A program made the translations under genes and the position numbers. A stretch of 64,000 nt of DNA from Escherichia coli (GTDB lineage: Bacteria; Pseudomonadota; Gammaproteobacteria; Enterobacterales; Enterobacteriaceae): NCBI RefSeq assembly GCF_003790525.1, contig NZ_CP033635.1. One strand, given 5' to 3'. The notes beneath the pieces were generated by a model. That model ran no database searches. It saw only the letters and a list, made by a program, of their open reading frames with translations, and was not told the DNA's origin. Below, piece after piece: positions 7,663 to 22,441 of the stretch. Numbering within the stretch: position 1 is the first letter of the stretch; each line of letters starts with the position of its first letter.

Positions 7663-14509
<6,847 letters not shown>

Positions 14510-17013: not shown

Positions 17014-18198
17014 TTAATTCAACCGTTCAATCACCATCGCAATTCCCTGGCCGCCACCAATGCACAGTGTTGCCAGCCCCAGCGTTTTATCGCGTGCCTG
17101 CATGGCATGTAATAGTGTGACCAGAATACGAGCACCACTGGCACCGATAGGATGCCCGAGCGCGATGGCCCCGCCGTTGACATTCACTTTCTCAGAATCA
17201 AAGCCCAGGGTTTTCCCAACGGCAAGGAACTGTGCGGCAAATGCTTCATTAGCCTCAATGAGATCAATATCCGCCAGTTGCAGCCCCGCCAGTTGTAACG
17301 CTTTTTGCGTGGCAGGTACTGGTCCCATACCCATCAATGCGGGGGGCACGCCACCGCTGGCATAACTTTTAATGCGAGCCAGGGGGGTAAGGCCTGCTGC
17401 CAGCGCCGCAGATTCTTCCATAATCACCAGAGCGGCAGCACCGTCATTAATACCAGACGCGTTCCCGGCGGTGACTGTTCCTGCTTTATCGAAGGCCGGG
17501 CGCAATGCACCTAACGCTTCAGCCGTTGAATTCGCTTTCGGGAATTCGTCTTGACTGAAGACGAAGGTTTTCTTCCGGGTGACAATATTTACCGGGACGA
17601 TTTCGGCTGTAAAAGCACCGGACTCAATTGCGGCTGCCGCTTTACGCTGTGAATGTAGCGCCAGTTCATCCTGCATTTCTCGGGTAATTCCGTACTCTTT
17701 GGCCACGTTCTCGGCGGTAATCCCCATATGATAACCATGAGTGGCGCACATCAGACCATCGCGCAGGATTACGTCATAAACCTGTCCGTCTCCAAGACGA
17801 TAACCAGAGCGTGCTTTTGCATCGAGTAAGTAGGGCGCTAAACTCATATTTTCCATACCCCCCGCCACAATGCTTTGCGCCTGACCTGCCTGAATTGCCT
17901 GGGCGGCAAGCGCCACACTTTTAAGACCCGAACCACACACTTTATTGACCGTGAATCCGCACACCGTTTCTGCCAGCCCGCTTTTTAACAGTGCCTGACG
18001 CGCCGGATTTTGCCCCAGCCCGGCTTGCAACACGTTACCCATAATCACTTCATCAATGTGTAGTGAATCGATTTTTGCACGTTCAATGGCGGCTTTAATT
18101 ACTGTCGCCCCCAGGTCGATGGCGCTGGTGGAAGCGAGTGAACCGTTAAAACTACCGATAGCAGTACGTACCGCACTGACGATGACACAATTTTTCAT
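17014..18198 (-). CDS. atoB: Acetyl-CoA acetyltransferase (thiolase II), 394 aa
   Basis: Thiolase active-site motifs ([32 protein letters not shown]); K-12 length and position. Confidence 0.95.
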
Positions 18199-18228
18199 TT
18201 TATATTCCTTCTGTCTGTAGGGTTGCCG

Positions 18229-19551
18229 TCAGAACAGCGTTAAACCAATGACGAAAATGACGCCGGAGAAGAGCAGGGCAGTGATGCAATAGCCCATGAT
18301 GTCGCGGACACCGAGTCCGGCGATTGCCAGTGCTGGCAGCGCCCAGAACGGTTGTGCCATGTTCATCCATTGCTCGCCGTAGGCGATCGCCATTACCGAT
18401 TTACCGAGATCAGCGCCCAGCGCCTGGGCTGCGGGTATCACGAAAGGTCCCTGAATAACCCAGTGACCGCCGCCAGACGGAACGGCGAAGTTAATCAGTG
18501 CAGAACTAAAAAAGGTCATTACCGGGAAGGTGTCTTTGTTCGCAACATTGATGAAGAATTCGGTAATGAGTCCGCCCAGACCGGAATGCTCCATCATCAG
18601 TTGGATCCCAGCGTAGAAGGGGAATTGCACCAGAATACCGGCAGTACTCCGTGCTGCCGCGCTGATAGCACGCATATAAGCCATTGGCGTTTTATGTAGC
18701 AGCAGACCCGCAATCATAAACATCAGGTTGACGGTATTGATGGTGATGTTGAAGCCATGTTCGCTGAAGTACATCGCAAGGTAAGCGATACCGAGTGCGC
18801 CGATGATCAACGTCAGAATGCGGCTTTCTTCCAGTCGCTCGGATGGTGGGGCATCTTTCGGTAGCTGCTTTTGGAAATCAGCCTCTTCCATGAGTAGTTT
18901 CGGATCGATACTCACCACGTCAGACGGTTTTGGCATCATCATGCGGGTGATAAATGGCATCACCACAATCAACGCCACAGTGATGAAAATGTTAAAACCA
19001 CTGAACAGAGTATCGCCCACCGGGATCAGCCCGGCGATATGCTCAACCGGGTTGCCCGGTGTTGCAGCCAACAGAGGCATTGAGCCAGAGAAACCGCCAC
19101 CCCAGGTGAGAAAACTAATGTAGGCGCAGGCAATGAGCAACGGATAATCAGAACCGGGTACTCGGCGGGCGACTTCACGGGCAAACATTGCGCCGACAAC
19201 CAAACCAAATCCCCAGTTGATGACACAAGCGACTGAACCGAAGAAAGTAACCAGCATGACGCCCTGTACGGGCGTCTTTGCGGCGGAGGCGGCAGTACGC
19301 AGCAAACTTTTTACCGGAGCAGAGCTGGCAAGGGCATGACCGGTAACGATGATAAGCGCCATCTGCATACCAAACGCCAGCAAGTTCCAGAAACCGTCAC
19401 CCCACATTTTCACCATGCTGATCGGCGTTTGTGGTGTTAACCAAAGCGCGATCACGAATGTTAGCAATGTCAGCAACATGGCAAAGATCAGTGGATCGGG
19501 AAGCCACCGGCTGACAAAACGCGTCATAAAACGCGATATGCGACCAATCAT
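18229..19551 (-). CDS. atoE: Short-chain fatty acid transporter AtoE, 440 aa
   Basis: Polytopic membrane protein; K-12 length and position. Confidence 0.92.
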   Translation of the reverse strand: MIGRISRFMTRFVSRWLPDPLIFAMLLTLLTFVIALWLTPQTPISMVKMWGDGFWNLLAFGMQMALIIVTGHALASSAPVKSLLRTAASAAKTPVQGVMLVTFFGSVACVINWGFGLVVGAMFAREVARRVPGSDYPLLIACAYISFLTWGGGFSGSMPLLAATPGNPVEHIAGLIPVGDTLFSGFNIFITVALIVVMPFITRMMMPKPSDVVSIDPKLLMEEADFQKQLPKDAPPSERLEESRILTLIIGALGIAYLAMYFSEHGFNITINTVNLMFMIAGLLLHKTPMAYMRAISAAARSTAGILVQFPFYAGIQLMMEHSGLGGLITEFFINVANKDTFPVMTFFSSALINFAVPSGGGHWVIQGPFVIPAAQALGADLGKSVMAIAYGEQWMNMAQPFWALPALAIAGLGVRDIMGYCITALLFSGVIFVIGLTLF

Positions 19552-20198
19552 AAATCACCCCGTTGCGTATTCAGATCGGCAGCTACTTCAAACCGAGCTT
19601 CTGTTTTGGCACGCACGGTGGCTAAATCACACCCGTCGGCAATTTCGGTGAGCCACATTTTGCCGTCAATAAAACGAAAGACAGCCAGTTCAGTAACCAG
19701 CATATGCACCGCATGTTGCGCAGTGAGAGGCATGGTGCAGCGGCGCAAAATTTTTGCTGAACCATCTTTGGCGCAATGTTCCATGGCGATGATCACTTTG
19801 CGCGACCCGGTCACCAGATCCATCGCGCCACCCATACCGGGCACCATTTTCCCAGGCACTACCCAGTTCGCGAGGTTTGCTTCTTCGTCTACTTGCAAAC
19901 CGCCGAGCACGCAGGCATCAATATGACCGCCACGGATTAGCGCAAATGACATGGCGCTATCAAACATGGCTGCACCGGGTAAAACACCGCACGGTTGTCC
20001 GCCAGCGTTCACCAGATCTGGATGCGCTGTCGTGACCGGGCCTAAACCGAGGAAGCCGTTTTCCGATTGCAGAGTGATATGAATACCCTCCGGTAAATAA
20101 TTGGCGACCATTGTGGGTAAACCGATCCCTAAGTTAACGATGTCACCATCACGAAGCTCTTGCGCCACACGGCGCGCAATACGTTGTTTCGCATCCAT
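19548..20198 (-). CDS. atoA: Acetate CoA-transferase beta subunit, 216 aa
   Basis: CoA-transferase family I subunit B; K-12 length; overlaps atoE start. Confidence 0.93.
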   Translation of the reverse strand: MDAKQRIARRVAQELRDGDIVNLGIGLPTMVANYLPEGIHITLQSENGFLGLGPVTTAHPDLVNAGGQPCGVLPGAAMFDSAMSFALIRGGHIDACVLGGLQVDEEANLANWVVPGKMVPGMGGAMDLVTGSRKVIIAMEHCAKDGSAKILRRCTMPLTAQHAVHMLVTELAVFRFIDGKMWLTEIADGCDLATVRAKTEARFEVAADLNTQRGDL

Positions 20199-20860
20199 TA
20201 TTTGCTCTCCTGTGAAACGATGATGTGGTCGATAACGGCACCAGGGGTGACAATATGGTCAGGTTGCAGCTCGCCGGTTTCGACCAGTTCATCTGGCTCT
20301 ACCAGCGTGATATCAGCCGCAAGGGCTATCAGGGGGTTAAAGTTGCGGGCGCTAAGGTGATAGGTCAGGTTGCCAAGTGTGTCGCAACGATGAGCGCGAA
20401 TTAGCGCCAGGTCGGCGCGCAGCGGGCGTTCGAGCAGCCAGGTTTTACCGTCGAGTGTCAGTGTCTGTTTGCCTTCCTCTACGACGGTACCGACACCTGT
20501 TGGGGTGAGAAAACCACCAAGTCCAGCTCCACCACAGCGAATTTGCTCGATTAGCGTACCTTGCGGCACCAGAACGACGTCCATCTCACCAGAAATCATG
20601 CGCCGACCTGTTTCCGGGTTGGTACCGATATGTGAAGCAATCACTTTGCGGACTCGACCATTGACGATGAGCGGACCGATGCCGGTATCAACAAACGCGG
20701 TATCATTGGCTATCAATGTCAGGTCGCGAACACCAGATTCCAGTAATACTTCAACCAGGCGGGATGGAGTGCCAATCCCCATAAATCCGCCCACCATGAT
20801 GGTCATGCCGTCACGAAAGAAGCCGGTGGCGTCTTGTAATGTCATCAATTTTGTTTTCAT
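20198..20860 (-). CDS. atoD: Acetate CoA-transferase alpha subunit, 220 aa
   Basis: CoA-transferase family I subunit A; K-12 length. Confidence 0.93.
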
Positions 20861-20905
20861 TTTTTATCCCTCTTGCATACACCGTTGTGGGTACAGTCAG
20901 GGAAT

Positions 20906-20921
20906 AGCAAGGGGAGTGCCA
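20906..20921 (-). promoter_or_regulatory. Sigma54 (-24/-12) promoter of atoDAEB: TGGCACtccccTTGCT
   Basis: Reverse complement of 20906-20921 is a perfect match to the sigma54 consensus TGGCAC-N5-TTGCW, about 45 bp upstream of the atoD start. Confidence 0.85.
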
Positions 20922-21003
20922 GAATGAGATTATTGGGGGTTGTTATTTAACTAATTGAATAGAAAAGGATAAATTAGATGGGGGTTTATAAGGAGAATGA
21001 GCG

Positions 21004-21044
21004 GCTATGCAGAAAATTGCGCACTGTGCAAATTTCTGCATAGC
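21004..21044. promoter_or_regulatory. AtoC upstream activating sequence (inverted 20-bp repeat gctatgcagaaaattgcgca / tgtgcaaatttctgcatagc)
   Basis: Near-perfect palindrome ~100 bp upstream of the sigma54 promoter, consistent with enhancer-binding-protein sites. Confidence 0.75.
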
Positions 21045-21055
21045 AAGTTTTGGCG

Positions 21056-22441
21056 TTATACATCCGCCGGATCGATACCGTATTCCTGGAGTTTATACAT
21101 CAATGCACGGCGACTGATGCCCAGCATTAACGCAGTGCGGGTTCGGTTTCCTTCTTGTTGTTCCAGCACTTCCATAATGATGCGTTTTTCGACGCGTTTA
21201 ATTTCCTCTTTTAAATTACGCTCACCGACAGGGGCTGTTTTTGCCTCACCAGCATTACAGACTGGCTGACGAATCTGCGGCGGAAGATCCTCAGAGAAAA
21301 TGATCGGGCCTGAGTTCATCACGACGGCGCGTTCAATGACGTTGGAAAGCTCTCGAATATTACCCGGCCATGACCAGGCGGTAAGCAGCGACATTGCCAT
21401 CGGATCGATGTCGATAATATCGCGCTGATTCTCACTACTGAATTTTTGCAAAAAGTGATTAGCTAACAGGGAAATATCTTCCCGGCGATCGCGCAGAGGC
21501 GGTAGTATTAAATGAATAACGTTAAGGCGATAAAAGAGATCTTCACGGAAGGTGCCTTCTTTCACCATTGCCTGCAAGTCGCGGTTGGTGGCAGCAATGA
21601 TGCGGATATCAACTTTTATGGTCTGATGACCGCCAATCCGTTCAAATTCCCGTTCCTGCAGAATGCGTAGTAATTTGGCTTGCAGTACCAGCGGCATTTC
21701 GCCAATTTCGTCGAGGAGCAGAGTACCTTCGTTGGCACGTTCAAATAATCCCTGACGTAAGGTTTGTGCACCAGTAAATGCGCCTTTTTCATGACCAAAC
21801 AGTTCACTTTCGAGCAACGATTCCGGCAGTGCCGCGCAGTTGACTTTAATGAACGGCCCCTTTGCCCTCCGCGAATTGTAGTGAATCGCTCTGGCAATCA
21901 ACTCTTTCCCGGTGCCGCTTTCACCGCTAATCAAGACGCTGGCCTGAGAAAGGGCAATTTTGGCGGTGTCTTTGCAGATGTCCATCATCGCCGGGCTGTT
22001 GGTGAGAATGTGCCCCCATTGCCAGCTGGTGCTCAGTGCCTGGTGCAGATGACGGATCTCTTTTTTCATTGACTGGAGTTGTAAAGTGCGCTGAACGATT
22101 AAATTCAACTCATCGAGATCAAACGGTTTGATAACATAGTCGAAGGCTCCGCAGCGTAGTGCTTCGACGGCGGTTTCCACTTCAGCATAGGCCGTCATCA
22201 GAATAACGGGTGTCCGGGTCTCATGGCTGCGCATCTCCTTGAGTGCCTTGATGCCGTCCATCTCTGGCATGCGGATATCCATCAACACCACGTCAGGGTG
22301 AATATCGGCAAACAGGTGTAATGCTGTGCGCCCGTTGTTCGCACAATGTGTTTCGAATCCTTGTAGTGCAAAAGCGGTGCTCAGCATACGGCGAACATTA
22401 TCTTCATCATCCACAATAAGGATGCGATTAATAGCAGTCAT
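21056..22441 (-). CDS. atoC: Sigma54-dependent response regulator AtoC, 461 aa
   Basis: Receiver domain, AAA+ sigma54-interaction domain (GESGTGKE, GAFTGA) and C-terminal HTH; K-12 length. Confidence 0.95.
   Translation of the reverse strand: MTAINRILIVDDEDNVRRMLSTAFALQGFETHCANNGRTALHLFADIHPDVVLMDIRMPEMDGIKALKEMRSHETRTPVILMTAYAEVETAVEALRCGAFDYVIKPFDLDELNLIVQRTLQLQSMKKEIRHLHQALSTSWQWGHILTNSPAMMDICKDTAKIALSQASVLISGESGTGKELIARAIHYNSRRAKGPFIKVNCAALPESLLESELFGHEKGAFTGAQTLRQGLFERANEGTLLLDEIGEMPLVLQAKLLRILQEREFERIGGHQTIKVDIRIIAATNRDLQAMVKEGTFREDLFYRLNVIHLILPPLRDRREDISLLANHFLQKFSSENQRDIIDIDPMAMSLLTAWSWPGNIRELSNVIERAVVMNSGPIIFSEDLPPQIRQPVCNAGEAKTAPVGERNLKEEIKRVEKRIIMEVLEQQEGNRTRTALMLGISRRALMYKLQEYGIDPADV

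Follow-up and report, generated by a model that had tools for sequence, protein, structure and literature searches.

The atoDAEB control region of an Escherichia coli genome carries the sigma-54 promoter and AtoC enhancer described for K-12

Introduction

The sigma-54 promoter and the AtoC enhancer of the atoDAEB operon, which together form the switch for the genes of acetoacetate and short-chain fatty-acid breakdown, are already known from Escherichia coli K-12. A K-12 17-mer, CTGGCACTCCCCTTGCT, has been listed as the sigma-54 ChIP-seq peak OS21, with atoD as the associated gene and a distance of 35 (Bonocora et al. 2015, PMC4591121, Table 1). In the same work, OS21 is flagged as an experimentally confirmed promoter in EcoCyc, and the published PSSM score of the site, 9.39, lies towards the low end of the table (PMC4591121). 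The atoC/atoD spacer was also selected in vitro by RpoN holoenzyme (gSELEX; Shimada et al. 2021, PMC8743547), and a GFP reporter of the atoD promoter was induced by acetoacetate and was unresponsive in atoS, atoC, and atoSC mutant strains (PMC7618054). Two ChIP-positive AtoC sites have been published, namely GCTATGCAGAAATTTGCACA at -184 to -165 and GCTATGCAGAAAATTGCGCA at -163 to -144 from the atoD ATG (Pilalis et al., PMC3118216, Table 5), and the 40-bp palindrome governs both inducibility and AtoC binding (PMC3118216). At the post-transcriptional level, atoD is found among the targets of the Spot42-A1 zone, together with gltA, nanC, paaK, galK, and xylF (PMC6127932).

Here, we describe the corresponding region of an E. 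coli genome, contained in a stretch of 64,000 nucleotides (hereafter the window). Positions 20861-21055 of the window are a 195-bp gap separating two minus-strand ORFs, atoC and atoD. This gap is the known atoDAEB control region with its functional parts unchanged, and both the sigma-54 promoter and the AtoC enhancer are ordinary here. We estimate a probability of roughly 95% that the region works as described for K-12. The sequences and positions of its elements, their identity to K-12, their conservation across genera, and the domain set of AtoC were observed directly and are presented in the following sections.

Gene organization of the ato locus

The features identified in and around the gap are listed in Table 1. 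The gene identities are backed by Pfam and by the RefSeq annotation of two strains, E. coli AR_0013, whose gap is 100% identical to that of the window, and K-12 MG1655. In both strains, the annotated order is rcsC / atoS-atoC / atoD-atoA-atoE-atoB / yfaP-yfaQ.

Table 1. Genes and regulatory features of the ato locus in the 64-kb window
Feature	Position	Strand	Basis
atoS, sensor histidine kinase, partner of AtoC, 608 aa	22438-24264	-	Pfam PAS, HisKA, HATPase_c
atoC, sigma-54 enhancer-binding response regulator, 461 aa	21056-22441	-	ORF list, Pfam
AtoC enhancer (UAS), two inverted 20-bp sites, centre 21024	21004-21044	.	Same as published AtoC sites
Putative IHF-like block ATTCAATTAGTTA, 1 mismatch to WATCAANNNNTTR	20948-20960	-	Midway between enhancer and promoter
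Sigma-54 promoter TGGCAC-tcccc-TTGCT	20906-20921	-	0 mismatches to TGGCAC-N5-TTGCW; same as K-12 ChIP-seq motif OS21
Predicted transcription start zone	20895-20898	-	Canonical spacing and listed distance
Spot 42-complementary leader segment CUGUACCCAC	20887-20896	-	Complementary to Spot 42 nt 1-11 (GUAGGGUACAG)
Possible 5' leader hairpin GUACCC-acaac-GG(u)GUAU	20877-20894	-	Weak evidence; overlaps Spot 42 site
atoDAEB operon, driven by the sigma-54 promoter	17014-20860	-	ORFs, Pfam, RefSeq annotation of matching strains
atoD, CoA transferase, 220 aa	20198-20860	-	ORF, Pfam
atoA, CoA transferase	19548-20198	-	ORF, Pfam
atoE, short-chain fatty-acid transporter	18229-19551	-	ORF, Pfam
atoB, thiolase	17014-18198	-	ORF, Pfam

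AtoC contains the Pfam domains Response_reg, Sigma54_activat (E 1.5e-75), AAA_lid_14, and HTH_8, with a GAFTGA motif at residue 220 and the receiver aspartate D55 within DVVLMDIRMPE. Only two substitutions, A119T and V400A, distinguish it from the K-12 protein, and the HTH_8 region (residues 415-454) is identical. AtoS has the K-12 length and differs from its K-12 counterpart by 4 substitutions. The original prediction had described the ato system as intact, a description that is justified at the sequence level because all six ato proteins have exactly the K-12 length, contain no internal stops, and carry 0-4 substitutions each. AtoD differs by one residue between the window and AR_0013. Elsewhere in the window, a gene of the alpha-2-macroglobulin family (a yfaS homologue; 9890-14509, plus strand) forms an open ORF of 1539 aa, whereas the AR_0013 annotation gives its homologue (locus L001, 14547-16195) as a pseudogene interrupted by an internal stop. 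The window accordingly does not come from AR_0013.

The sigma-54 promoter

The promoter motif TGGCAC-tcccc-TTGCT had been predicted on the minus strand at 20921-20906, about 45 bp before atoD, and this assignment is exact to the base. In the motif, TGGCACTCCCCTTGCT, the GG is located at 20920-20919 and the GC at 20908-20907, with 10 bp between them, and a stretch of 45 nt lies between the end of the motif and the atoD ATG at 20860. Being inside the 195-bp gap, the motif is intergenic, and it lies on the same strand as atoD. Re-inspection by pattern search gave no mismatch to TGGCAC-N5-TTGCW. The term 'perfect', which had been applied to this promoter, is appropriate for the 11 specified core positions but not for the extended consensus, in which TGGCAC is followed by a G that is replaced by T here. 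A pattern search of the whole 64-kb window with TGGCACNNNNNTTGCW returned this single match, even when up to one mismatch was allowed; the expectations per window are 0.16 exact matches and 3.67 matches with one mismatch, and at least one exact match was obtained in 15 of 100 shuffles. Because the motif match is only mildly improbable at the scale of the window, the weight of the promoter call rests on position, strand, and conservation.

Conservation was assessed with 80 loci containing close AtoD relatives, fetched from species-representative genomes. An atoC homologue ending no more than 700 bp upstream of atoD is present in 49 of these loci, as it is in the window. A GG-N10-GC motif of the sigma-54 type was found upstream of atoD in all 49 atoC-atoD loci, and in 46 of them it has at most one mismatch to TGGCAC-N5-TTGCW and lies 40-48 nt before the ATG, with the N5 spacer bases varying freely among loci. 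The 46 loci cover Escherichia, Citrobacter, Edwardsiella, Atlantibacter, Raoultella, Serratia, Morganella, Yersinia, Leminorella, Buttiauxella, and one Bacillota MAG. Of the remaining three, a Nitrospiraceae MAG has the motif with 1 mismatch but 115 nt away from the ATG, and the motifs of a betaproteobacterium and of another Bacillota MAG have 3 mismatches each. The combination of the atoC-atoD order and the GG-N10-GC motif reaches well beyond Enterobacterales, being found in Nitrospiraceae, Bacillota, and betaproteobacterial contigs (L057, L066, L076, and L079).

These data bear on the alternative that the -24/-12 match is a non-promoter sigma-54 site or a chance occurrence and that atoDAEB transcription has a different origin, either another promoter or read-through from atoSC. 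Exact core matches do arise by chance, as the 15 positive shuffled windows indicate, and many sigma-54 sites of E. coli are intragenic and have no known transcript (PMC4591121). The site described here, however, is intergenic, co-oriented with atoD, and 45 nt from its ATG, a distance kept in 46 of the 49 loci over several orders in spite of the variable N5, and in K-12 the site is ChIP-bound and EcoCyc-confirmed (PMC4591121). Moreover, no sigma-70-like -35/-10 pair was detected in 20700-21300 (0 found, 1.2 expected), and the atoD-promoter reporter did not respond to acetoacetate in the atoS, atoC, and atoSC mutants (PMC7618054). Transcription from elsewhere thus appears extremely improbable. 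The sigma-54 promoter reading, by comparison, is supported by K-12 identity, ChIP-seq, gSELEX, and conservation, and occupancy of this promoter by the sigma-54 holoenzyme would be expected from the K-12 data on the identical 17-mer.

Canonical spacing from the GC of the -12 element would place the transcription start at approximately 20895. A palindrome position of -146 to -107, as reportedly given by Matta et al. in 2007, would instead correspond to a +1 at 20897-20898. The 'distance 35' listed for OS21 was taken as the distance from the predicted start to the start of atoD and therefore also points to 20895 (PMC4591121). Both estimates, 20895 and 20897-20898, are compatible with the sigma-54 promoter.

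The AtoC enhancer

The second element of the original prediction was a 20-bp inverted repeat at 21004-21044, located about 100 bp further upstream and suited to binding AtoC. A repeat search detected one inverted repeat in the gap, with exactly these coordinates. Its arms of 20 nt each (21004-21023 and 21025-21044) stand 1 nt apart and are 18/20 (90%) complementary, with T.T and A.C mismatches, and are thus not literally identical. The proximal edge of the repeat is separated by 82 bp from the T of TGGCAC, and 105 bp lie between the repeat centre and the -24 GG, so that 'about 100 bp' was an accurate description. The repeat starts 11 nt past the stop of atoC, the gene that had been placed immediately beyond it. 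Every coordinate given earlier is correct, because the sequence read, the pattern search, and the repeat search agree.

The published site GCTATGCAGAAATTTGCACA corresponds to positions 21044-21025 of the window and GCTATGCAGAAAATTGCGCA to positions 21004-21023, in both cases with exact agreement of sequence and position. The two 20-mers of the repeat are therefore identical to the ChIP-positive K-12 sites (PMC3118216), which upholds its assignment to AtoC. Acetoacetate-inducible binding of AtoC to 21004-21044, known from the K-12 literature (PMC3118216), would be expected here by virtue of this identity.

Most enterobacterial gaps have a counterpart of the E. coli palindrome as their best inverted repeat. 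Its core, TTGCRCA-N-TGYGCAA, is kept across Enterobacterales, and changes in the outer arms occur symmetrically on the two sides, as in the Serratia palindrome with altered arms, TGAGAAGGAATTTGCGCA-c-TGTGCAAATTCCTTCTCA. The core was found with 0-1 mismatch in 42 of the 49 loci. In these 42 loci, the core centre lies 97.5-141 bp (mostly 104-108 bp) from the -24 element, whereas the separation of the core from the atoC stop varies between 17 and 116. Three Edwardsiella species have a gap extended by 24-95 bp, and this extra sequence, apart from 10 bp, is located between atoC and the palindrome. Because the distance between the core and the promoter is kept and that between the core and atoC varies, the palindrome belongs to the promoter and not to the end of atoC. 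The E. coli-type core is absent or has 2 mismatches in the Nitrospiraceae, Bacillota, and betaproteobacterial contigs.

This distance relationship is also relevant to the possibility that the palindrome is mainly, or additionally, an RNA element, that is, a 3' hairpin of the atoSC transcript that starts 11 nt after the atoC stop and acts as a terminator or stabiliser. When read in the ato sense, the palindrome folds into a hairpin of -23.3 kcal/mol with a z-score of -5.0, and none of 200 shuffles was as stable; the symmetric co-variation of the outer arms fits an RNA stem equally well as a dimer-binding site. However, no T-run follows the palindrome and the terminator scan made no call, the mismatches on the sense strand are U.U and A.C with no G.U wobbles, and conservation of the central 15 bp extends to the sequence itself and not only to its pairing. 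In Edwardsiella, the palindrome lies as far as 55-116 nt from the atoC stop, yet 97.5-107.5 bp from the promoter. Given also that AtoC binding to these exact 20-mers has been published (PMC3118216), an RNA role for the palindrome is very unlikely, although a secondary function as a hairpin at the 3' end of atoSC may exist, and we retain its interpretation as the AtoC enhancer.

Two finer models of the palindrome were considered, of which the first was rejected and the second found no support. An obligatory asymmetry at the centre, with one TTGCACA half and one TTGCGCA half in an orientation that flips between genera, is contradicted by two loci (L019 and L034) with perfectly symmetric cores. 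In the other model, each 20-bp arm forms its own TGCA-N6-TGCA site for an AtoC dimer, but the outer TGCA is replaced in Serratia, Atlantibacter, and Buttiauxella with the dyad symmetry kept.

Sequence variation within E. coli and the enhancer-promoter spacer

Among 5426 complete E. coli genomes, 3923 contain a match to the gap. Since the other 1503 show no match to the ato intergenic region, this region is missing in over a quarter of the complete genomes. The 41-mer containing the palindrome is identical in 3542 of the 3923 genomes carrying the locus and has 1 mismatch in the rest, and the 41-mer containing the promoter is identical in 1846 genomes and has 1 mismatch in 2075 (3921 in total). 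A 41-mer from the spacer was detectable in only 1872 genomes, many of them at 80-90% identity. Enhancer and promoter are thus near-invariant in E. coli, whereas the spacer between them varies. The spacer at 20932-21003 is unusually variable within the species, and only 177 of the 3923 genomes reach 99% identity to the window over the full 195-bp gap.

Compared with K-12, the gap contains 10 substitutions, and both the palindrome and the 16-nt promoter motif are free of them. Eight of the substitutions fall between enhancer and promoter. The other two are located 2 nt past the atoC stop and at 20902, where the window has C and K-12 has G, 4 nt beyond the TTGCT of the -12 element. The C/G difference at 20902 is probably a common E. 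coli polymorphism that underlies the split of the promoter 41-mer into 1846 and 2075 genomes. In E. coli CUVM53 (NZ_CP116976.1, 3001-3141), the match to the gap ends within the -12 element, and the annotation gives atoD as a partial pseudogene without its N-terminus; the sigma-54 promoter of this strain has probably been destroyed.

Midway between the enhancer and the promoter lies an A/T-rich block that resembles an IHF site. Matches to the IHF pattern with 1 mismatch occur 62 times in the window against 54 expected, that is, at chance frequency, and the assignment of this block is therefore backed only by its position and by partial conservation: in a 35-sequence alignment, a TTCAAT-N-TTAA block is partly conserved where the surrounding spacer is not. 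The segment at 20948-20960 may accordingly be regarded as a putative IHF site. A requirement for IHF was reportedly found by Matta et al. in 2007. The original prediction was right about the promoter and the repeat but incomplete, as it omitted the IHF-like block and the conserved leader segment with its complementarity to Spot 42.

The atoD leader

A conserved block, GTACCC-ACAAC-GGTGTAT, occupies positions 20894-20877 near the predicted 5' end of the atoD mRNA. In the 35-sequence alignment, GTACCC is conserved in Escherichia, Citrobacter, Raoultella, Atlantibacter, and Serratia. Spot 42, the sequence of which was read from K-12, is complementary to this part of the leader; RNAduplex gave -16.1 kcal/mol for the pairing of Spot 42 nt 1-16 with the leader, a value equalled in 3 of 1000 shuffled leaders. 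The exact register of the pairing shown in Table 1 should be read as a prediction. As atoD is a listed target (PMC6127932), Spot 42- and Hfq-dependent repression may operate here through the predicted pairing.

The same block could fold into a hairpin. As a single sequence, the leader hairpin has a folding energy of -3.8 kcal/mol in the window, and values down to -11 kcal/mol were obtained in Citrobacter. Across the alignment, 83% of the cells of its 6 chosen pairs are paired, 3 pairs show double changes, and none of 500 shuffles reached the covariation score. RNAalifold, run on 25 leaders, predicted no consensus structure. We rate the hairpin as weak because RNAalifold predicts none and the support comes only from a structure that we named ourselves. 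An Rfam scan of 20700-21200 at E<=10 returned only noise (11-17 bits versus gathering scores of 47-160).

It is conceivable that the leader block at 20877-20896 is a stabilising 5' stem-loop or a protein-binding site and that its complementarity to Spot 42 is incidental. Both halves of the hairpin are conserved, including GGAGTAT, which is not needed for pairing with Spot 42; distant genera have other sequences but still form a hairpin at the same place, and the pair counts exceed those of shuffles. On the other hand, the stem in E. coli is short and weak (-3.8 kcal/mol), RNAalifold finds no consensus structure, and the covariation depends on a few distant sequences that are hard to align. In addition, a perfect 8-bp duplex with 2 more pairs to the seed of Spot 42 is seldom equalled (3 of 1000 shuffles), and atoD is a listed target of precisely this zone of Spot 42; the stem-loop and Spot 42 roles can also coexist. 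We therefore consider an incidental complementarity possible but clearly the less favoured explanation, and we keep pairing with Spot 42 as the preferred reading of the block.

A more speculative proposal, to which we assign a still lower likelihood, is that the first ~20 nt of the atoD mRNA form a dual-purpose element across Enterobacteriaceae, namely a 5' stem-loop whose 5' arm is also the seed-binding site of Spot 42. If this were true, the hairpin and the pairing with Spot 42 would compete and thereby set the strength of catabolite repression on a sigma-54 promoter that is not directly activatable by CRP. The link between Spot 42 and atoD has already been published, and no description of a conserved competing hairpin or of its phylogenetic spread was found in the accessible literature.

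A pairing between the TTCCCT that follows the -12 element and the AGGGAA of the ribosome-binding site in read-through transcripts was also considered and was set aside: TTCCCT lies upstream of the predicted start, and such pairing is disrupted by the G that K-12 commonly shares at 20902.

Proposed mechanism and comparison with related systems

Sigma-54 binding, AtoC binding, induction by acetoacetate, and the status of atoD as a Spot 42 target are drawn from the K-12 literature and would apply to this strain through sequence identity. In the mechanism that we envisage, the sigma-54 RNA polymerase would wait as a closed complex on the -24/-12 element at 20921-20906. AtoS would sense acetoacetate and phosphorylate AtoC, which would then bind the 40-bp palindrome (21004-21044), approximately 105 bp upstream of the -24 element, and form an active AAA+ oligomer. 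Contact between AtoC and the polymerase would be made by DNA looping, probably aided by IHF-induced bending at the A/T-rich block at approximately 20948-20960. ATP hydrolysis and the GAFTGA loop would open the promoter, and atoD-atoA-atoE-atoB would be transcribed from approximately 20895-20898. Finally, the first ~10 nt of the leader may base-pair with Spot 42 at its 5' end, and a post-transcriptional layer of catabolite repression would result.

The strain carries a complete and apparently functional switch for acetoacetate and short-chain fatty acids, the working parts of which are those of the K-12 paradigm. The comparison also provides a footprint across Enterobacterales that consists of the enhancer core, the IHF-like block, the -24/-12 element, and the leader block. 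This footprint could serve in the engineering of AtoSC-based acetoacetate biosensors and in the annotation of sigma-54 regulons.

The closest described system is the K-12 atoD promoter itself. The two share the length of the intergenic region (195 bp), with no indels between them, as well as the sequence of the 17-nt sigma-54 motif, that of the 41-bp palindrome, and the distances of both elements from the atoD ATG. The order of genes (rcsC / atoS-atoC / atoD-A-E-B / yfaP) is also shared, as is the HTH region of AtoC. With respect to the Spot 42 regulon, the atoD leader contains an 8-nt perfect complement, CUGUACCC, to the 5' single-stranded region of Spot 42, as expected for a member. The atoD case differs in that pairing is predicted at the extreme mRNA 5' end, 25 nt before the ATG, and leaves the Shine-Dalgarno sequence uncovered.

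More broadly, the region resembles NtrC-activated glnAp2, PrpR-prpBCDE, and ZraR-zraP in combining a -24/-12 promoter with a palindromic enhancer approximately 100 bp upstream. With the systems of NtrC-family bEBPs it further shares a response-regulator-type AAA+ activator, the GAFTGA motif, a Fis-type HTH, and an A/T-rich putative bending site. Unlike these relatives, the ato system receives its signal, acetoacetate, through AtoS and has the core TTGCRCA-N-TGYGCAA within a 40-bp dyad, and its enhancer directly follows the activator's own gene.
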